Of a stretch of 64,000 nucleotides of DNA, positions 39,617 to 49,932 are shown piece by piece. The position numbers and the translations under genes were made by a program. A model generated the notes under the pieces. That model worked only from the letters and a program-made list of their open reading frames with translations. It was not told the DNA's origin and made no database searches. Numbering within the stretch: position 1 is the first letter of the stretch; the number at the start of each line of letters is the position of its first letter. The stretch covers positions 488,794 to 552,793 of the forward strand of contig CAWGNX010000002.1 of NCBI GenBank assembly GCA_963824065.1, written 5' to 3'. This DNA comes from an uncultured Chloroflexia bacterium. GTDB taxonomy: Bacteria; Chloroflexota; Anaerolineae; Anaerolineales; DRKV01.

Positions 39617-39879
39617 TCCAATCCTCCTACTGTAAAATGAGTTACCGCAGGATATGACGGTCTGGATGTGGCCATTGGCGGCAATCAATGCGACTTTGCA
39701 CCTTATCTTAACATAAGGGTTGTAATTGTTTTTAACCCGTTCAGGTGAACCGTTCTAGGGTCCGATCTATTTGAAGGGTTAAATTCCAGGATGCGATCAG
39801 CAATCTTACCTGCCAGTTGCGGTGCAGGGGTGGCTTCGTTATAATCCCTGAAGAACTTATCCACCACCAGGATAAACCC

Positions 39880-40449
39880 ATGAGCCCGCTTGATTCCCCC
39901 ACCAAACAAGACCTGCTTGACCTGCTGCTGGACTGTTTTCCGCGCCCGGAAGACATGGAAATGCTGCTCGAGCTGCGCCTGGATAAAAATTATGCTGCCC
40001 TGGCGCACACCGGCAGCTACGAAACTGACCTGTTCCGCGTGCTCCAGGCAGCGGATGCCCAGGGCTGGCTCGAAGATTTGCTGCAGGCGGCCTGCGAGGC
40101 GCGCCCTTCCCGGCAGGATTTGCAGGCCACGGTTGCCGCCTACCTGGCGCAGCAAAACCAACTGGTTGAAACACCCGATCGAATTAGCCAGGATGATGTC
40201 CCCACTCAGCCTGCACCCGATCAAGAGATCCCCAAGCTGGCCCGCATGCTGCATAAGGGAATGACCGGCGAGGATGTTAAAACCCTCCAGGCCCGGCTGT
40301 ACGAGTTTGGCTTCCTGAAATTGGTGGATGGCATCTTTGGGATCGACACTGAATATGCCGTCAAAGAATTCCAGCGCCAGAACTCGATTGCCCCGGACGG
40401 CATCGTTGGGCCGCAGACCTGGGCCAGGTTGTGGCAAGGGAGCGGTTGA
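39880..40449 (+). CDS. EAD (death-like adaptor) fused to a PG_binding_1 peptidoglycan-binding domain
   Basis: KQDLLDLLLDCFPRPEDMEMLLELRLDKNYAALA...ETDLFRVLQAADAQGWLEDLLQAACEARP aligns residue for residue with the N-terminus of the 4793 protease. C-terminus: GMTGEDVKTLQARLYEFGF...VDGIFGIDTEYAVKEFQRQNSIAPDGIVGPQTWARL. Confidence 0.7.
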   Translation: MSPLDSPTKQDLLDLLLDCFPRPEDMEMLLELRLDKNYAALAHTGSYETDLFRVLQAADAQGWLEDLLQAACEARPSRQDLQATVAAYLAQQNQLVETPDRISQDDVPTQPAPDQEIPKLARMLHKGMTGEDVKTLQARLYEFGFLKLVDGIFGIDTEYAVKEFQRQNSIAPDGIVGPQTWARLWQGSG

Positions 40450-40536
40450 GAGACCGTCCGAATGGCCTGGCTGCCGGGATTGGGGATGGGCAACCAGAGC
40501 AGTTCTTGAAACGATCCAAAAATGAAACAGCCCCCT

Positions 40537-40570
40537 GCCTGTAATTGAGCAGGGGGCTGTCCGTTGTGCC
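40537..40570. terminator. Bidirectional hairpin acagccccctgc...gcagggggctgt between convergent genes
   Basis: 12-bp perfect stem with a 10-nt loop, read directly. Confidence 0.6.
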
Positions 40571-40577
40571 GGGAAAC

Positions 40578-43500
40578 TTAGGCAAACGCCGGGGGTACCG
40601 GGAAATTGTTGTTCATCAGTGCCTGGTTGGTGGCCTGCAGGCCGCCAATCGAGGCGATTCCGTGGTCGATGTAGTTGTCCGGGTCCACCGGGCTCACCAG
40701 TGCGGTATTCTCAAACCCGGTGCGCTTGCGGAAGCTGCGGTCCGCGCCGGCGTTCATCAGGTCATTGGCGATGGGCGGGTTGTTGTGATCGCTGGGCGGG
40801 TTGATCTGGTCCCACAGCAAGCCGTGGACGATCTCATGCGCCAGGGTTTCCCCGAGCATGCGCCCGTACACTTCGATGGCGAAGTTTTTCAGCTTCGGAT
40901 CGGTCATGGTGGCTGATTCGAGATCAATCAGCAGCGATTGGGTCTCCTCATCGATATCCGATGCGCCGGGATCATCATACCCTCCGGGGAAGATATCGAT
41001 GGTTTCATTGAACAAGCCCAGACCGCCGGGTGCATTGGTGCGCCCGAGCAGGCCTTCGCTGCCCGCCGGGGGATCGCCCCGCAGGGTAGCCACCATCACG
41101 TTGGCTGCCGGGACATGCCCCGGAACTGCCTCCGAGAAGCCGCCAAACTCCCAGATGGTGCGGGCATTGGCAGTTCCCAGGATACTCTCGCACGCTTCCT
41201 TGGCTTTGGCGACCACGCTGTTTTTGACGTCATCCAGCTTGAGCTTGGCCAGGGCCGCGTCAAAGACCGCCGCATCTTCAACCACCCGCACGAACTGCGG
41301 GATGGAAAGCTGGACTTTGACGCTTGCCAGCTGAGTTCCGCCGGAGTCAAACACCGCGAAGTCTGCTGCGGTTTTTCCAGGGCGTACGCCGCGCACCCGG
41401 GTCCGCCCGCTGGACGGGTTATCGATGGTGATCGTGCCGGGTTCAGCGGGTGACCAGCGGAAGGTGGATCCCGCGGGTGCATTGCGCACCGTGGCTTCTA
41501 AATCGATTACGCCGGTTTTATCCTGCCGGGAGGCGTTAAACGAGCGGTTATCCGCCGTGTTGGTCGGCGTAGGCAGGATGATAGAGGGGCGGGTGGTGTC
41601 CTCGGCGGCCTCGCCTTTGGCTTCCACTTCCACTTTCTCACCGCCGGGGCGGGCAACCTTGATATTGGCTTTGTTCTGCCCGGCAGTTTCTGCCAGGCTC
41701 TGCACGTCCGAGGTGGTCATCGGTTTGGCAGCTTCACCCGAGCCCCCGCCGATCATGCTCTTGATGGCGTTGTTGGTGAGCTCCTGGGCTTGCTGGTCAT
41801 TGATCAGGCCGTTGTCCTTGGCGGTTTTGATCGTGCGCATGGCTTTGTCGATATCGCGAGCCATCTTCGCTTGCAGCGCCAGGTCGGCCGCTTTGCCACC
41901 GAAGAACTGGGCAGTGTCCAGGGCTCCCTGGAGGGCTTCCAGGGCATTCTTCTGGGTGCCTTCCAGCCCGGTGATGTCCTTGAAGATATTGGGCGTTCCC
42001 AGTAGCTGCAGGGCGGCTGCCAGCCCGGTCGGATCAGGCGCAGCGGGTGCGGTCTGCATATTGATGATCGGAGCCGGGAAATCCTTGGCGGTCAGGTTGG
42101 GCGGTTCGGCGCGGCGGCTTTCGGTGCTGACTGGCAAAATCGCAGTCGGCGAGTCGGGGATGGGGGATTCCTCCCAGCGCCAGAAGCGTTCCTCTTCTTT
42201 GAACTCGCAGGAGTTGCAGGCGCCCATCACCGATTCGGCATACACTCCATTGGTGGGCAGTGCAATCCGCATGGGCTCGATGGGGGTGTTGGGCTGGTAG
42301 TGCTCGAGCAGGTCGATGGGGTTTTCCACATCCTGGCGGAAGGTGGGGTCGAGGTGGAAGCCGCGCGACACGGGCATCACCAGGCAGTTGCCCACGATGC
42401 CGATCAGAACATTATCTACGACCGAAGCCACGCTCTTTCCGCCGCTGTTAGGTGCTTCGAAACCATCCAGCAGCATATATCGCCGCTCTTCACTCATCTC
42501 CCGCCACAGGTGGTGGTGGGCATCTTCGATGTGCTCATTGAGGAAGTCCAGCAGGTTGCGGGCGAGTTCTTTATCTTCTTCGCGCGGGTTGCGCAGCTCC
42601 TGGCGGTTGAGCGGGGTGAAAATACGCACATCATCAAAACCTTTGATGTCGTTTTGAATGCGGGCACTGCGGAACAGGTAGTCTGACGAGTACTTGGTGC
42701 GGTACTGCATGGTGCCGCTTTCCACAATGACGCGCGAGTTCGCTGGCAGAAGCTGGAACAACCAGGGTCCCAGCCGGGAAATGCCGCTGATTTTGATGAA
42801 CTTGATGTCAGCCCGGACGAGGGGGGGTAAAGCACTCCCCAGACGCACGGATACATACAGGGGGCGGTCGTTCACGAAATCGGACAGCAAGGTGGCATCG
42901 ATGGGCAGTTCCACTTCACTGTTGTCGTTGCGCACCGCAAACACGCGCATGTTTTGCACAAAGCGTTCCGCAATCTGCGGGCCAAGCTGCTCCAGGAACA
43001 CCCGGTCTTTAAACTGCTGGTTCTTGAGGTGGTTTTTGTAAAATTCTTCGGCGTTGATAAAGGGCAGGATGTTGCCCAACCAGGTCCAGGTGCCGGCGTC
43101 AAAATCATCATCCTTGTCGCGCGGTCGGGCCAGCTCGAAACGCATGTACAGATCACCGTCCAGGTAATCCAGGGTTTGGTCGGCGTAGCGCCCCACGGGC
43201 AGGTCAGAGCCAACATAGTTATTTTCGATCCGTTCCAGGGCATCGAAACCTTTGCCCAGGCTGCGCGGCACGCCGCTGCGCAGCGTGTTGCGCCAGCGCA
43301 GGGTTTTATCGCGGTTGAAACGGCTCATCAAGAGCGGCACGAACAGGCATTCCTGCACATCCACCAGGCGCTGGCGCACGATCAAGTGGCGCAGCACTTC
43401 GAAATACTGCATTGTGATGGCATGGCAGTGATTGTAGTTTGCCAGGGTTTCGGTCGTTGCCGTGACCCGCTCCCCCTGGCGCATGGTCTGGACAACGGTC

Positions 43501-45446
43501 GAGCGCTGGGAGCGCACGGAGGAAGCTGACTGGATGGTGCGGTCGCGCAGCTGATTGAGAGCGCTGGCCGCGGTATTGCGCGAGCTGTTCTGGAAGGCCG
43601 AACTGCTGGCACTGGAGGTACCGCCCCCAATGCCCAGCAAGCCCCCCAGGAAGCCTGCTCCACCGAAGATGCCACCCGCAATTCCCAAGCCGCCGCCGAA
43701 CGAGCCGGTCGAAGAGTGCGAGCCGCCGCTGACGCTTTCGCTCACGGTGCCGCGCACCACTTCATTGATATCCCGGTCACGCGAGATTGCGGCATCCAGC
43801 TGTTCCGTTTCCACGATCGCTTCTGTGCGGGCTGCGGATTCACGCCGCTCCCAATCAACGATGGCGATCTGTTTTTTCTGCCCAGGGGCGAGCGGCAGGC
43901 TGTACAGCAGGTTGCCCATGGAGTAACCATCTGCGACCCATTCCTGTTTGAAGTGCAGGATGTGCCCGTGTGCGATGTTGCAGGCCTGGTAAATAGTGGG
44001 TTCGTCGTCCCAGTCTACCGGGGCATCGCAGGTTAGGCGGGAGCGGTCAGGTTTTAACTGGATGTGCTTGGCGAGCAGGCGCAGCAGGTCGCCGTGGACC
44101 GTCAGGTTTGCCGCCGCGGCGATTTTGGTGAGGGTAAATCCATCGGGGTCGCGCGCCAGAGTCTTGAGCACCCTGGCGTCGATCATATCGGTCGTAAAGC
44201 CGGTCTGAGCCGAGGCTGCCACCGAGCGCAAGGAGACATCTGGGGTTGAGGCGTCGGCGGTGCTGAAAGCGGCAGTCGCCACAGCCTTGGAGCCTTGTAA
44301 AACGGCCGCAATCTGGCGGATATCAATTTTGTTCGGCTCCTCAAGGGTCAGACCTTTGATGTCGGGCTGCGTGGTGCGCAGGACATAGGAAAATGAAAAC
44401 TCTTCCAGGGTTCGGTTGGGACGGGTGAAATCGACACATTTTCCCGCGCCGGGGTCGCTGGAGTAAACCCCATCGCCGCGAGCCAGGTCGACCATGTCGG
44501 GATCGCGCGGCACCAGATCGGTTTCTTTCCCGCAGCCGCAGTCATCCTCATCATCATCGCACATACAGTCATCCACATCGACGACCAGGATGACCGATTC
44601 TGGGAAGATCCCACCGTCCTCGAGGTGGATGGGTACCGAAACGGGCTCTTCTTTGAGCGATACATCGCCATGCGCGGCGCTGAAACTGCCGACCGGGTAA
44701 GGACCAGAGAAATATCCGGAGGCATCGGTCTGCACCACAATCATGGCACGGAAATCTGCCGCCTCAGGTTGCGGAGCCTGAGCTCCCCAGATCACGACCT
44801 GGCGGTTGGCAATCTGGACTTTGCCAGCCCGGTCGATCACTCGCCCGCGCAGCTTGGTGGGGCGGCCAAAAGCAGGGTCTTCATTGGGTAAGGTTTCCGC
44901 GTACCGCCGCGGTTCCACCCGGAAGCGCAGCTGATCGCCTAGCTTTTCGCCGGGAACGCTGGCGCTAAACAGGGTTTCTCCATCTGGCGCAGAGACCCGG
45001 AAGGCCACATCGCCCTGGATGTCGGCGGGGTTGGGAAAGGTCAGGGTCACGTCGCCGCTTTTGGGCAGCTCCAGGCTGATCTGGGCGCCCACCCACAGGG
45101 TGATCTGGTCATCGTCCTCGCCGGGCAGGCGTTCCCGCCGGGTGAAGGTAGCAGACAGACGGTGGCTGGTGTAGTCGTCCGCACCAGACGGGGAGGTAAG
45201 GATCACTTTGACGACCTGCGGAGGCAGCTCGTCGCCGCTTTCTTTTTCTCCGGCAACGACCCGGTCGGCAAAGCGGCTGACCATCGCTTCGCTGACCCCG
45301 GGCACTGCCGCCAGCTCAGCAACGGTGCGGAAGCGGCCCACCGTGGAGCGGTAGGTGATCAGACGAGAAGCCAGGCCCGCGCCGATCCCCGGCAGGGAGG
45401 CAAGCTCAGCGGCACTGGCTGTGTTAAGATTAATTTTTTGCTGCAT
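40578..45446 (-). CDS. 1622-aa multidomain protein of unknown function (HhH N-terminus, prealbumin-like domain, Cys/Asp cluster, glycine zipper, Ig-like domain, C-terminal HExxH)
   Basis: Uninterrupted ORF with AAAGGAAG RBS. INLNTASAAELASLPGIGAGLASRLI (ComEA-type HhH). GRVIDRAGKVQIANRQVVIW...TDASGYFSG. DVDDCMCDDDEDDCGCG. GGGLGIAGGIFGGAGFLGGLLGIGGG (about 43600-43735). LAHEIVHGLLW (HEIVH encoded at 40824-40838). Confidence 0.85.
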   Translation of the reverse strand: MQQKINLNTASAAELASLPGIGAGLASRLITYRSTVGRFRTVAELAAVPGVSEAMVSRFADRVVAGEKESGDELPPQVVKVILTSPSGADDYTSHRLSATFTRRERLPGEDDDQITLWVGAQISLELPKSGDVTLTFPNPADIQGDVAFRVSAPDGETLFSASVPGEKLGDQLRFRVEPRRYAETLPNEDPAFGRPTKLRGRVIDRAGKVQIANRQVVIWGAQAPQPEAADFRAMIVVQTDASGYFSGPYPVGSFSAAHGDVSLKEEPVSVPIHLEDGGIFPESVILVVDVDDCMCDDDEDDCGCGKETDLVPRDPDMVDLARGDGVYSSDPGAGKCVDFTRPNRTLEEFSFSYVLRTTQPDIKGLTLEEPNKIDIRQIAAVLQGSKAVATAAFSTADASTPDVSLRSVAASAQTGFTTDMIDARVLKTLARDPDGFTLTKIAAAANLTVHGDLLRLLAKHIQLKPDRSRLTCDAPVDWDDEPTIYQACNIAHGHILHFKQEWVADGYSMGNLLYSLPLAPGQKKQIAIVDWERRESAARTEAIVETEQLDAAISRDRDINEVVRGTVSESVSGGSHSSTGSFGGGLGIAGGIFGGAGFLGGLLGIGGGTSSASSSAFQNSSRNTAASALNQLRDRTIQSASSVRSQRSTVVQTMRQGERVTATTETLANYNHCHAITMQYFEVLRHLIVRQRLVDVQECLFVPLLMSRFNRDKTLRWRNTLRSGVPRSLGKGFDALERIENNYVGSDLPVGRYADQTLDYLDGDLYMRFELARPRDKDDDFDAGTWTWLGNILPFINAEEFYKNHLKNQQFKDRVFLEQLGPQIAERFVQNMRVFAVRNDNSEVELPIDATLLSDFVNDRPLYVSVRLGSALPPLVRADIKFIKISGISRLGPWLFQLLPANSRVIVESGTMQYRTKYSSDYLFRSARIQNDIKGFDDVRIFTPLNRQELRNPREEDKELARNLLDFLNEHIEDAHHHLWREMSEERRYMLLDGFEAPNSGGKSVASVVDNVLIGIVGNCLVMPVSRGFHLDPTFRQDVENPIDLLEHYQPNTPIEPMRIALPTNGVYAESVMGACNSCEFKEEERFWRWEESPIPDSPTAILPVSTESRRAEPPNLTAKDFPAPIINMQTAPAAPDPTGLAAALQLLGTPNIFKDITGLEGTQKNALEALQGALDTAQFFGGKAADLALQAKMARDIDKAMRTIKTAKDNGLINDQQAQELTNNAIKSMIGGGSGEAAKPMTTSDVQSLAETAGQNKANIKVARPGGEKVEVEAKGEAAEDTTRPSIILPTPTNTADNRSFNASRQDKTGVIDLEATVRNAPAGSTFRWSPAEPGTITIDNPSSGRTRVRGVRPGKTAADFAVFDSGGTQLASVKVQLSIPQFVRVVEDAAVFDAALAKLKLDDVKNSVVAKAKEACESILGTANARTIWEFGGFSEAVPGHVPAANVMVATLRGDPPAGSEGLLGRTNAPGGLGLFNETIDIFPGGYDDPGASDIDEETQSLLIDLESATMTDPKLKNFAIEVYGRMLGETLAHEIVHGLLWDQINPPSDHNNPPIANDLMNAGADRSFRKRTGFENTALVSPVDPDNYIDHGIASIGGLQATNQALMNNNFPVPPAFA

Positions 45447-45783
45447 CAGGTTCTTCCTTTCGCGAAAAATCGGGATCCATTAAACTGCTGGACACGCGCT
45501 AAAAAAGACAGGCCACCTCCTTTCATGCTGTTGTCGTGAGGTCTTTATCGATATGCTTAACGACGGTGTGGTGGGGATTCCGTTATATTATGGTCAGAAT
45601 TGTCCGATTAATATACATCTGGTGTAAACTCTAACGGAAATGACCCATTGCATTAATTCATTGAGCCAGAAAGCGGGTGGAGGTGGAACAATCCGCTGTA
45701 GTTATTTGGTAAAATCCCCACAGGCATGACCCTTTGTACCAATTCTTAAGCCTGACAGGTTGGAATAGCGAATGGAGGTCTGA

Positions 45784-46685: not shown

Positions 46686-49600
46686 ATGGGCAAACTACCG
46701 AGCTTACTTCCCAGGATCATCTTAATCCTCATATTCCTTTGTTTTCCTTTCCCTGCAGCGAGCTACTCGCACATGACTACCGCCACCGCAGATCCGATCG
46801 TATACCTGTCTGCGGCGGACGACGGATCGGAAATCACCGTGACGACCGGGACGCTGCTGGAGCTGATTTTGCCGGCCAACCCTTCCACGGGCTACATGTG
46901 GAACCTCTCCACGCTCGATCCAGACCTGTTTGGGCTGGAAAGGCGCGTTTTCGAGCCTGAGAGCGATCTGACCGGTGCACCTGGCCTGGAATCTATTCAG
47001 CTCAGGGTTCAGCAGCCTGGCGAAATCCGGTTGCTGATAGAAAACCGGCGAGGCTGGGAACGTGATGCTCTGGCACTTGACACATTCGAGGTGCAGATCA
47101 CAATCCTTGGCGAGCCGCTGGAAAACCCCGGACCTGATGCCGAACCAATTTCCCCACTGCCAGCACCGGTGGAACCCACAACCAACTTGACTACCGATCT
47201 CATCCTGCCGGAATCGTTCGATTGGCGCAGTTTGAACGGCCTAACTCCGATAAAAAACCAGGGAGGCTGCGGCAGCTGCTGGGCATTTGCGACGACCGGT
47301 GTGCTCGAAGCAGCGCAAAAAATCCACACCGGGCAGGATGTCGATTTCGCTGAACAGTTCCTGCTGGGGCACAACGAGGCCAACTGGTCCTGCAGCGGCG
47401 GCTCGCAGGCTTTTGATTACCATAATTTTCGCATTGCCTCTTTGGAACGCGAAGCTGGCCTGCTTCTGGAGCAGGACTGCCCCTACCGGAGCAACAACAG
47501 TCGCTGCATTGGCAGCCAGCCGTTCAGGCATCCCTACACCAGCGATGCTAGCATGCAGGTCCAGGCGAGCACCGCTGCGATCAAACAGGCAATCTTGCAG
47601 TACGGTCCGGTATATACGCTCATTTGCGCCGGGCCAGGTTTCAGCGCGTACCACAGCGGTGTCTTCGAAACAAATGAAAGCAGCTACTGCAGTGGCGGTA
47701 CAAACCATGCCGTCGTGCTGGTCGGGTGGGATGACAGCCTGGGCAGCCAGGGCGCGTGGATTTTACGCAACTCGTGGGGAACGGCCTGGGGCGAAGAAGG
47801 TTATATGAACATTGCCTACGGAATCTCGAACGTGGGGCGCAACAACCTGACGGCAATCTACGATGGCAGTCCGCTCAGCCCAGAGGTGCAGTACGGCGGA
47901 GTCTTCAAAGAATTAATCCTCGACTATCCATATCTGTATACAGGAATCGGCAACCGTCTGGCCGTATTTGATGTTTCGCAGCCGGACCAGCCGATTTTGT
48001 TGGGAGCCAGCATCCCGCTGCCGGACACCATCCGGGGTGTGGCGGTACAGTCCGGGTATGCATACGTTACCACCTTTTGGAGAGGATTGAGCGTATTCGA
48101 TATCAGCAACCCAGGCCCACCTCGTTATGTGTACGGTGATTCATACCTGAGCGGCTCATCTGGTGAAGATGTTGTAATCGCAGATGGGACTGCGTATTAC
48201 ATTGACAATTTCCATCTAAATATCCTCAGCCTCGCTGATCCTGCCCGGCCTGTTCGCCTGGGTTCGATGGTCACAAGCGGAAATCCCAAGGCTCTGGAAG
48301 TAGCAGGAAATTTTGCCTACGTGGCTTCCTGGTCGGTTGGATTTTAATGTGATCAATGTGTCCAATCCCGCCAGCCCCACCAATGCTGCCCTGGTGGATA
48401 CGCCGGGGTTTGCCATGGATATCGCCCTTCAGGGACAGTATGCCTATATTGCCGACCAGACCGGTGGGCTGCGCGTCTTCGATATATCAATCCCGACTGC
48501 CCCGGTGGAAGTGGCTGTTTATGATACGCCGGGATCGGCTGAAGGGGTTGATATATTCGGCACACGCGCCTATGTAGCGGATGGCGAAGCTGGCCTGCTC
48601 GTCCTGGATATCACCAACCCCACCGCTCTGGTTCTGATCACCAGCCTGGATACCCCGGGTACGGCTTACTCGCTGAAGGCAGCCGGCGACCTGGTCTACC
48701 TGGCGGACGGCGAAGCAGGTCTGCGCCTGCTGGATATCAGCGAGGCACCACCGATCGAAGTCGGGTCTTACCAGCAGCTCGGCATTCCACTGGACGTGCA
48801 GGCCAATGGTGATGTACTTTATACTGCAGCAGGGAGACAGGGTTTAATCGTGCATGACGCCAGCCATTTGCCGGACCTCGTGGAAACTACCCGGCTGCCG
48901 GCTGTGGACTCGCTGAACAAACTCTCCCTGGCTGAGGCTACCCTTTACGGCCTGGATAGTGAAAACCTGCGTGTATTCAGCCTGGAAGATCCGCTGCAGC
49001 CCCAAGCGCTGGGATCCCTTCAAGTGGGACCAGCGAGCGACCTCGCGGTTTTGGGCGATTTTGCCTACCTGGCAGCCGGTACATCGGGTATAAAAATTGT
49101 CGACTTGCACGAACCAGCCAACCCCCAGGACCTGGGTTTGGTACCGCTGACCCCTGGTGGAGGCCTCACAAAACTCATCCAGGCGAGAGACAATTTCCTT
49201 TACGTTCTGGCGGAGCCTGTCACCATCGATTCGGTTCCCACGGGTGGGGGTCTGTTCGTCCTGGACGCCAGCCTGCCTGAAAGGCCTCTGCCAGTTTTGT
49301 ACTGGCCCGCCACCACATCACCAACTGATTTTTCTCTCGTGGAGCACTACGCGGTGGTGGCAGAGACGACTTCCTGGTGGGAGGGAGATTTCTCCCGGGG
49401 CGGAGTCCATGTGCTGGACCTTAGCAGCCCACCGGACCCGGTTGAGGTGTCAAGGGTTTTAATCGCCGAAGGGAATTTGCTAGCCGCTGAAGGGAAAACG
49501 GTGTATATCAATGATGGCCCGCGCGGTATAGTGGCAATCAACCTGGAAAACCCGGCTGAGCCCCAGCTGCAGGCAAGCCTGAAATATTTGAGCGGGGTGA

Positions 49601-49932
49601 CCGATCTGCACATATCCGGAAATCTTCTGTGGATGAGTTCGCCGCAAAATGGGCTGCTGGCAGCCTGGAGGTTGAAAGATCGCAAAACAGCTTATATTCC
49701 CCCTGAAGGCGGCGAGCTGGTAGGAAAAAGCGACCAGGCCCAGTTTGTGTTCCCGGCTGGAGTTTTTGCTTCCGAGAGCGCAGTTACTTTCCAGCAGTAC
49801 ATGGTTGATCCACTGATTCCAGGATTGGATAGCGCTGCGATGACCTACCGTCTGTCACCTGTGACACACGCCGACAGCAGTGCTGCTGACCTGCTGGGTG
49901 CCTATACTGCTCGTGCTGAGTTATACGCATAG
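46686..49932 (+). CDS. Secreted chagasin-like inhibitor (I42) domain + papain-family C1 cysteine peptidase + LVIVD-type beta-propeller repeats; one frameshift near 48330
   Basis: Signal-like N-terminus. I42 loops: ANPSTGYMW, GAPG, RRGWE. C1 motifs: NQGGCGSCWAFA (Cys), NHAVVLVGWDD (His), LRNSWGTAWGEEGYM. Repeated ...YAYVAD..GGLRVFDIS.P..P... units run through ORF 48313..49932. Confidence 0.75.

Follow-up and report, generated by a model that had tools for sequence, protein, structure and literature searches.

The window analysed here is the whole stretch of 64,000 nucleotides of contig CAWGNX010000002.1 from an uncultured Chloroflexia bacterium, and it carries a giant gene whose product belongs to a widespread protein family. 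Sequence comparison indicates that this family pairs a conserved scaffold with an exchangeable C-terminal enzyme across a conserved junction. The gene product is read here as an antagonistic, bacteriolytic and envelope-directed polymorphic toxin that stands alone, with a probability of roughly one half. This reading is favoured because of the spectrum of the warheads, the presence of modules of extracellular type (PKD, Big_2, tectonin and metzincins) and the exchange of C-terminal cassettes. A preliminary description of the same DNA, made from its letters alone, had proposed a toxin-like or lytic effector; that idea is strengthened by tails that are swapped for peptidoglycan (PG) hydrolases, peptidases and esterases, while the orphan status, the pore and the machine that accompanied it did not hold. 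The open reading frame (ORF) is uninterrupted and ATG-initiated, as had been stated, and lies on the minus strand.

40578–45446, minus strand: whole gene, 1622 amino acids (aa) plus stop codon, ATG start, uninterrupted ORF

Conserved scaffold and exchangeable tails

The encoded protein, which is a 100% match to P0001 in the family search, has numerous relatives. A word-indexed search returned more than 290 homologues, the full-length ones being 50–69% identical, with Ephemeroptericola, Lysobacter, Mycobacterium, Pelomicrobium, Chloroflexota and Pyrinomonadaceae as named hosts. Run exhaustively with phmmer against 1.84 billion cluster representatives, the core (aa 420–1240) gave 3291 matches at E ≤ 1e-3 and 1695 at E ≤ 1e-30, and the relatives are mostly 1100–2600 aa long among the matches listed. 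These numbers refute the earlier label of an orphan. A scan of genome contigs with the single protein found 6 loci, with relatives in Anaerolineaceae, Calditrichia, Streptomyces and an alphaproteobacterium, and a cluster look-up added Reinekea blandensis. Looking the protein up by its exact sequence gave no entry. Relatives also occur in 33 plasmid records, among them Streptomyces megaplasmids and records of Caballeronia, Psychrobacter, Polaromonas, Nostoc and Haladaptatus. Targeted literature searches yielded no description of the family.

Judged by sequence conservation, the scaffold that defines the family spans about 1040 aa, from approximately aa 195 to approximately aa 1235. These bounds are set by the retention of aa 195–290 in 109 of 145 family representatives and of aa 325–375 in 130 of the 145, whereas a query-like helix-hairpin-helix (HhH) occurs in 12. 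The parts of the scaffold, the junction and the tail of this protein are the following.

44577–44864, minus strand: conserved domain, aa ~195–290, possibly transthyretin/carboxypeptidase-regulatory-like; start of the family-wide scaffold
44529–44579, minus strand: acidic Cys cluster DVDDCMCDDDEDDCGCG, aa 290–306
44322–44474, minus strand: highly conserved segment, aa 325–375, with GxCVDFTxPNRTLEEFSYxxVxRTTEP; invariant columns
43737–44054, minus strand: N-terminal part of the core, aa 465–570, with AHGHxLxFKQEWxADGYSMGNLLYSLPLAPGQKKQIA followed by a long helix
43620–43697, minus strand: glycine zipper GGGLGIAGGIFGGAGFLGGLLGIGGG, aa 584–609, 26 residues
43332–43619, minus strand: conserved region after the zipper, aa 610–705, with invariant NYNHCH (aa 670–675) and YFEVLRH
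42360–43322, minus strand: confidently modelled alpha/beta scaffold domain, aa 709–1029
41727–42326, minus strand: C-terminal part of the scaffold, aa 1041–1240, with invariant CNSC and FWRWEESP motifs and a predicted helix of ~50 residues (aa 1162–1211)
41619–41651, minus strand: junction motif RPGGEKVEVEA, aa 1266–1276; the tails of relatives diverge directly after it
41277–41510, minus strand: Ig/PKD-like beta-sandwich, aa ~1313–1390, first part of the exchangeable tail
40581–41273, minus strand: HExxH zincin-like alpha/beta domain, aa 1392–1622, with HEIVH at 40824–40838

The patterned core that the preliminary description had pointed out, with HGHILHFKQEW... and NYNHCH, is present and nearly invariant among relatives. 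Across 120 aligned sequences, the mean fraction matching the query residue is 0.77–0.88 over aa 481–540, 601–720 and 991–1200, and there are core segments in which more than 80% of the relatives, distant phyla included, are identical to the query residue. Dozens of alignment columns show no variation at all, and many of these hold a Cys or a His (H495, H673/C674/H675, H687, C700, C1077 and C1080). Scans of the full protein against Pfam, NCBIfam, PHROGs and PADLOC matched only the HhH, and sequence (phmmer) and profile searches of the PDB returned HhH proteins only; in these searches the core corresponds to no well-characterised family. Both the HExxH motif and the glycine zipper are conserved among relatives.

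An AlphaFold2 (AF2) model of the core (aa 420–1240, alignment of 50 sequences) reached a mean predicted local distance difference test score (pLDDT) of 58.9 and was confident only over aa 709–1029, with pLDDT 83–94 over most of that domain. The most conserved stretches were modelled worst, with pLDDT below 50 at aa 463–697 (43356–44060) and aa 1041–1195 (41862–42326); within aa 465–570 the query residue is matched by ~85% of sequences per column, yet the confidence is low. The low values may reflect an alignment that is shallow or too uniform, or stretches that would fold only in an oligomer or adopt alternative conformations. A Foldseek comparison of the core model with the PDB and BFVD gave nothing better than E = 0.36, and the scaffold is new as a sequence family and, as far as it can be tested, as a fold.

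The C-terminal portion behaves differently. About one fifth of the closest relatives match the query over its first 79% only (57–76% identity) and then continue into unrelated tails, with the breakpoint directly after the conserved junction RPxGExVEV[DE]A. Among 265 family proteins, 62 tail clusters were distinguished that share no detectable similarity with one another. An artefact of assembly or annotation is an unlikely source of this diversity, given the many independent contigs. Scanning 30 tail types against Pfam, together with precomputed matches, identified the following domains.

PG hydrolase or PG-binding tails: Peptidase_M23, OmpA, Glyco_hydro_25 (two independent types), Amidase_2, Peptidase_M15_4, PG_binding_1 with Peptidase_M74, PG_binding_1 with Muramidase, DUF2272
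Peptidase tails: Peptidase_C70, Peptidase_C11, Reprolysin/M43 metzincins
Other tails: PETase/chlorophyllase/DUF676-like esterases, Tyrosinase, Big_2

DUF2272 has been placed with NlpC/P60, CHAP and amidases, beside Tse1 (PMC10318531). Several tails without a Pfam match show, by eye, Cys...His or His...Cys patterns resembling papain-like or caspase-like dyads, and several tail types, the HExxH domain among them, fall into no annotated family. Nucleases, NADases, deaminases and ADP-ribosyltransferases were all absent from the 30 tail types scanned. By these domain assignments, the repertoire consists of wall- or envelope-acting enzymes or secreted-type proteases, most often PG hydrolases or PG-binding domains. 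A repertoire of this type, lacking nucleases, NADases and deaminases, points to a C-terminus that acts beyond the cytoplasmic membrane. Domains of extracytoplasmic type also recur in members (PKD/Ig, Big_2, tectonin, OmpA and PG_binding_1). In the Streptomyces clavuligerus megaplasmid, for instance, a 1023-aa relative (L017, 8743–11814) contains a Tectonin lectin beta-propeller at aa 363–464, and a gene for a FemA/FemB peptidoglycan-bridge glycyltransferase lies ~7 kb away. Genes of the FemA/FemB type are of the kind that confers immunity to lysostaphin-type enzymes.

The tail cassette of the present protein consists of an Ig/PKD-like domain and a novel HExxH zincin-like domain. AF2 modelled the C-terminal 338 residues with high confidence (pLDDT 95.7, predicted template modelling score 0.93) as an Ig/PKD sandwich, itself at pLDDT ~98, followed by an alpha/beta domain. 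The Foldseek matches of this model all fall on the Ig-like part (PKD, Rib, S-layer, Big) and mask the HExxH domain; they bear out the Ig-like domain that had been placed ahead of the motif. The motif itself was also correctly recognised: HEIVH occupies aa 1537–1541, 85 residues from the C-terminal end, and H1537, E1538 and H1541 are invariant in all relatives sharing this tail type. In the predicted model it lies within a long helix (aa 1517–1547, pLDDT > 90) after a small beta-sheet subdomain, and H1554 and D1562, each conserved in at least 90%, are candidate third zinc ligands. The invariant HExxH in a long helix resembles that of zincin metallopeptidases, and the conserved downstream His or Asp may supply the third ligand; unlike them, the tail has no metzincin HExxHxxGxxH, no assignable subfamily and no similarity to any catalogued peptidase family in Pfam, NCBIfam, PDB or Foldseek comparisons. 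A search with the HExxH domain alone returned fragments of the same family only. The domain is new as a sequence family and, within the limits of what can be tested, as a fold.

The glycine zipper noted in the preliminary description is present as described. AF2 predicts it at the tip of a helix-loop-helix hairpin (helices at aa 538–568 and 617–641), in a region of low confidence. At the corresponding site, 219 of 245 members have GxxxGxxxG and 244 of 245 have the relaxed pattern [GAS]xxxGxxx[GAS]. The query zipper has four Gly in register, and a run of four in register arises in 17% of composition-preserving shuffles of the region, so the evidence lies in the conservation and not in the GxxxGxxxG motif itself.

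The toxin reading, known systems and rival explanations

The toxin reading can be cast as a sequence of steps in which the scaffold would serve as a self-contained delivery or activation device. No dedicated secretion system would be needed for the protein to reach its target; it would be set free by lysis or leave by another route, and the HhH might tether it to DNA, for example extracellular DNA. The helix-glycine zipper-helix hairpin, flanked by the most conserved sequence, would insert into a membrane or oligomerise on it, and this step would expose the C-terminal enzyme to the cell envelope of the target bacterium. The HExxH domain would then cleave a peptide substrate, either a peptidoglycan stem or cross-link or an envelope protein, and the whole protein would act as a bacteriolytic polymorphic toxin.

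Neighbouring genes were compared across the window, 14 loci with precomputed gene calls, plasmid records and 80 further metagenome loci; after removal of duplicates, 90 loci remained, and all ORFs within 5 kb were clustered across them. No neighbour gene family recurs across the family in these 90 loci, and no secretion, phage or partner gene is conserved. The gene is solitary, with no conserved partner. Among the 28 HExxH-tail loci whose downstream sequence is long enough, no common downstream ORF was found, the next gene frequently being convergent. The suggestion of a structural protein of an unrecognised machine is therefore unsupported, since no partner gene is conserved across the loci. 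The gene can be regarded as accessory and horizontally moving, because it has no conserved neighbour, occurs on plasmids and has a higher GC content than its flanks.

Several observations weigh against the toxin reading. There is neither a secretion-system gene nearby nor a signal peptide, so that no route out of the cell is apparent; a simple hydrophobicity test found no signal-peptide-like N-terminus or strong transmembrane (TM) helix in 257 members, and the absence of a signal peptide reported earlier for this protein agrees with the same crude test. Because no downstream ORF recurs in the 28 HExxH-tail loci or in the 90 loci overall, there is also no conserved immunity gene, which is atypical for polymorphic toxins and PG-hydrolase effectors. 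The scaffold model is poor (pLDDT < 50) precisely where conservation is highest and gives no structural support for a pore. The zipper is the sole TM-like segment and is borderline hydrophobic (KD19 = 1.61); the membrane-inserting or pore-forming role once ascribed to it stays at the level of inference. The HExxH domain matched no peptidase family in the sequence and fold searches described above. Finally, the defence and conflict genes that lie beside some members also fit a self-lytic effector.

Polymorphic toxin systems (CdiA, Rhs, LXG, MafB, TANFOR; Zhang et al. 2012, PMC3482391; PMC7073777) share with the family a long conserved N-terminal region followed by a variable C-terminal enzyme, recombinational exchange of tails at a conserved junction motif (VENN or DPxGL in their case) and a wide, horizontally moving distribution. 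They differ in possessing downstream immunity genes, known trafficking domains, signal peptides and linked secretion systems, all of which the family lacks, and the classical systems are dominated by nucleases, deaminases and NADases where the family tails are envelope-acting hydrolases. The survey of Zhang et al. 2012 makes no mention of helix-hairpin-helix, ComEA, muramidase or M23; the absence of these terms suggests that the family was not described there. The family works like a polymorphic toxin, yet it is not assigned here to any described class of them, since it lacks both a neighbouring immunity gene and any recognisable route of trafficking.

Bacteriolysins (class III bacteriocins such as lysostaphin, zoocin A and enterolysin A) and the periplasm-acting effectors of type VI secretion systems (T6SS; Tae/Tge/Tle) use the same warheads, namely M23, amidase, muramidase, NlpC/P60-like and lipase domains, and also have targeting modules, Ig-like or PG-binding, beside the catalytic domain. 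However, bacteriolysins are small and Sec-secreted and T6SS effectors are cargo with adjacent immunity genes, whereas the family has a scaffold of ~1000 aa and none of these features. By analogy only, large clostridial toxins and Tc toxins may be likened to the family as huge single polypeptides with a hydrophobic insertion segment, putative in the family, in the delivery region, a separable cargo and no signal peptide; they show no sequence or fold similarity to it, its cargo is C-terminal and envelope-targeting, and no holin-like release gene lies nearby. A conserved GxxxGxxxG is also found in the glycine-zipper toxins Tde1, TelE and EsxX (PMC10240207, PMC10434224, PMC12744356), where it is linked to membrane permeabilisation or toxin translocation. 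In those toxins the motif sits in small substrates of T6SS or type VII secretion systems, whereas the family zipper is internal and predicted at the hairpin tip of a 1000-aa scaffold.

The main rival, less probable than the toxin reading, is a programmed self-lysis or abortive-infection effector. Such a protein would stay in the cytoplasm, where its variable N-terminal head, made of an HhH or other modules, would sense an invader or stress; the zipper hairpin would breach the cell's own inner membrane like a holin, and the C-terminal hydrolase would then destroy the producer's own wall or envelope, combining holin-endolysin logic in one polypeptide. The missing signal peptide, secretion genes and immunity gene would all be explained, and a single-gene system with swapped effector tails is found in many defence proteins. 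Conflict or defence genes adjoin some members: EAD1 with PG_binding_1, EAD7-SIR2 with SIR2-nSTAND1, a plasmid defence island (TIR, PIN, DUF262, type I restriction–modification), HepT/MNT and patatin. The NTPase-centred conflict systems linked to EADs resemble the family in joining a constant module to rapidly varying effectors, which include PG-attacking enzymes, caspase-like peptidases and alpha/beta hydrolases; the effectors linked to EAD1 include lysozyme-like and papain-like PG peptidases, and the self-lytic rival fits such PG-attacking effectors (Kaur et al. 2020, PMC7159879). EAD genes also adjoin two family members. The adjacency, however, is not conserved, and the giant protein itself has no EAD, NTPase, vWA or STAND domain. 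It also has no recognised sensor domain and no match among the PADLOC-DB 2.0 defence-system models, its contexts are mostly housekeeping, and column conservation above 80% in the scaffold across phyla would be unusual for a sensor engaged in an arms race. Cytoplasm-acting effectors (nuclease, TIR, SIR2) dominate known abortive-infection systems, and none is found in the 30 tail types, while modules such as Ig/PKD, tectonin and metzincin usually belong to secreted proteins.

A housekeeping or developmental envelope protein, either a wall-remodelling autolysin tied through its HhH to DNA handling or a surface adhesin, is improbable. The strong purifying selection on the scaffold would suit it, as would the tails that hydrolyse or bind PG, the Ig-like and possible transthyretin-like modules and the ComEA-type HhH, but the patchy distribution has been shaped by horizontal transfer, plasmids included, the HhH is absent from most members, and the 62 unrelated tail types include an esterase, a clostripain, an AvrRpt2-like protease and a tyrosinase; neither a signal peptide nor an anchor is present, and conserved partner genes were not found.

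In Pb2 of phage T5, as in other tape-measure and ejection proteins, a hydrophobic Gly-rich segment is joined to a muralytic domain at the C-terminus. By this analogy, and by a weak match to phrog_8119 (E = 0.017), the protein could be a structural protein of a phage or mobile element with a virion-associated lysin (tape-measure- or ejection-like), left as a prophage remnant. This reading is very improbable and was rejected as largely refuted: just one of 50,697 phage records contains a relative, and this UNVERIFIED scaffold from a faecal metagenome shows no phage domains in its remaining ORFs, the [QE]YFEVLRH and VMGACNS patterns occur in none of 2.9 million IMG/VR contigs, BFVD offers no fold match, and phage genes are found in none of the 90 loci.

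If the toxin reading is correct, the family is a very large unnamed one, with more than 3000 clusters at 50% identity, plasmid copies included, spread over Chloroflexota, Actinomycetota, Pseudomonadota, Acidobacteriota, Calditrichia and other lineages. It would share a common chassis of unmatched fold with a ready library of wall-degrading and proteolytic warheads, and would extend the principle of polymorphic toxins to a form without a secretion system and an immunity gene. A further proposal, more tentative than the toxin reading itself, is that the scaffold of ~1000 aa may be a new self-sufficient delivery module, a translocator like that of AB toxins built around a metastable glycine-zipper hairpin that would bring envelope-degrading enzymes to where they act in monoderm and diderm bacteria alike. 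If so, a new major class of bacterial toxins, thousands of proteins strong, would be defined by this scaffold and would need neither a secretion system nor a partner nor an immunity protein. These considerations raise the question of how a 180-kDa protein without a signal peptide brings a peptidoglycan hydrolase to the wall. As modular lytic enzymes, the warheads and the chassis have a practical interest too.

N-terminal head, flanking signals and neighbouring genes

Ahead of the scaffold, the head of this protein comprises two further domains.

45258–45443, minus strand: ComEA-type double HhH, aa 2–63, Pfam HHH_3 (PF12836), E = 1.1e-15
44877–45221, minus strand: putative beta-rich N-terminal domain, aa ~76–190, no family match

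The double HhH had been correctly recognised. Its HHH_3 match scores 57.9 bits against a Pfam gathering cutoff of 27, and phmmer and profile searches of the PDB matched it to ComEA and EEPD1 structures. When the segments N-terminal to the core were compared, a query-like HhH was found in just 12 of 145 representatives; by this comparison it is an optional accessory of the family. Units resembling the beta-rich domain repeat, by eye, within the longer heads of relatives. The prealbumin or carboxypeptidase-regulatory domain of the preliminary description was not confirmed, since the query has no carboxypeptidase-regulatory or transthyretin match in Pfam and the matches seen are sub-threshold and confined to two relatives (CarboxypepD_reg, E = 0.053; NOMO transthyretin-like, E = 0.077), at an apparently equivalent position to aa ~195–290. 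The acidic Cys cluster is present as reported; conservation in the family is limited to its second CxC (C303/C305, DCxC).

The flanks of the gene carry the following signals.

45599–45628, minus strand: promoter-like site 5' of the gene, consensus match only
40525–40562, minus strand: intrinsic terminator with a 15-bp stem and a T tract, shared with the convergent gene

The ATG is preceded, at a distance of 8 nt, by an AAGGAAG ribosome-binding site, and M1 is conserved in at least 90% of cases when the N-terminus is aligned with the family consensus; the ATG start is supported by this site and by the alignment with relatives. Of the two terminators that had been placed around the gene, the 3' one is strong and stands, while the 5' flank is a divergent promoter region in which the terminator-like signal is weak. 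The GC content of the gene is 0.60–0.62 against 0.50–0.57 in the flanks (window positions 40500–45500), a difference consistent with horizontal acquisition. No direct or inverted repeats suggesting a transposon were found flanking the gene.

The convergent neighbour encodes, as had been noted in other words, an EAD and a PG-binding domain.

39817–40449, plus strand: 210-aa protein with EAD1 (E = 1e-15) and PG_binding_1 (E = 8e-20)

EAD1 is an adaptor that recruits effectors to NTPase-centred conflict systems of multicellular bacteria (PMC7159879). As a general rule, this neighbour was rejected as a functional partner, because the adjacency is not conserved. A second conflict system of EAD type adjoins the closest relative (P0002, 69% identity; L019, 6588–10827), which has EAD7-SIR2_2 and SIR2_2-nSTAND1-AAA_16 genes downstream of it in the same orientation. 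A distant relative of 1203 aa (L016, 8272–11883) lies on the Polaromonas plasmid pH8NP2 (NZ_MG869622.1) inside a defence island with DUF262, HigA, a non-specific endonuclease, PIN, TIR and type I restriction genes; a gene of the LprI 'lysozyme inhibitor' family is found near it. Beside some members there are HepT/MNT and patatin genes. Most members are set among housekeeping genes, and a type II secretion system beside the Lysobacter copy is divergently oriented and found at no other locus.

Two sub-clades show local arrangements of their own. In the first, two paralogues form an operon, BIG1 (1660–1900 aa) and BIG2 (1360–1430 aa), separated by a conserved ORF of ~95 aa without a Pfam match. 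BIG1 ends in a PETase/chlorophyllase/DUF676-like esterase tail and BIG2 in a Peptidase_C70 tail, as scanned in L084 and L086. The small ORF could encode a chaperone, an adaptor or an immunity protein.

BIG1-small ORF-BIG2 operons: L074, 3376–13594; L081, 7–9390; L084, 3029–13051; L086, 3329–13054; L102, 4571–14681

In the second, a high-GC sub-clade, the giant gene is preceded by a GerE/LuxR helix-turn-helix regulator (~180 aa) and an ORF of ~110 aa that is REC-like by eye and has no Pfam match. Between the stop codon of the latter and the start codon of the giant gene there is a 4-nt overlap, a layout that suggests regulated co-expression.

GerE/LuxR and ~110-aa ORF pairs: L029, 7804–8777; L030, 20–1119; L032, 1230–2323; L049, 880–1896; L011, 7021–8004

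On the other side of the gene, the window holds two overlapping genes with LVIVD repeats.

46686–48347, plus strand: 553-aa fusion of a chagasin-family inhibitor (I42), a papain C1 peptidase and an LVIVD repeat
48313–49932, plus strand: 539-aa LVIVD-repeat protein, overlapping the preceding I42-C1 peptidase fusion gene

A protease that carries its own inhibitor domain in one chain, as the first of these does, is to our knowledge unusual.

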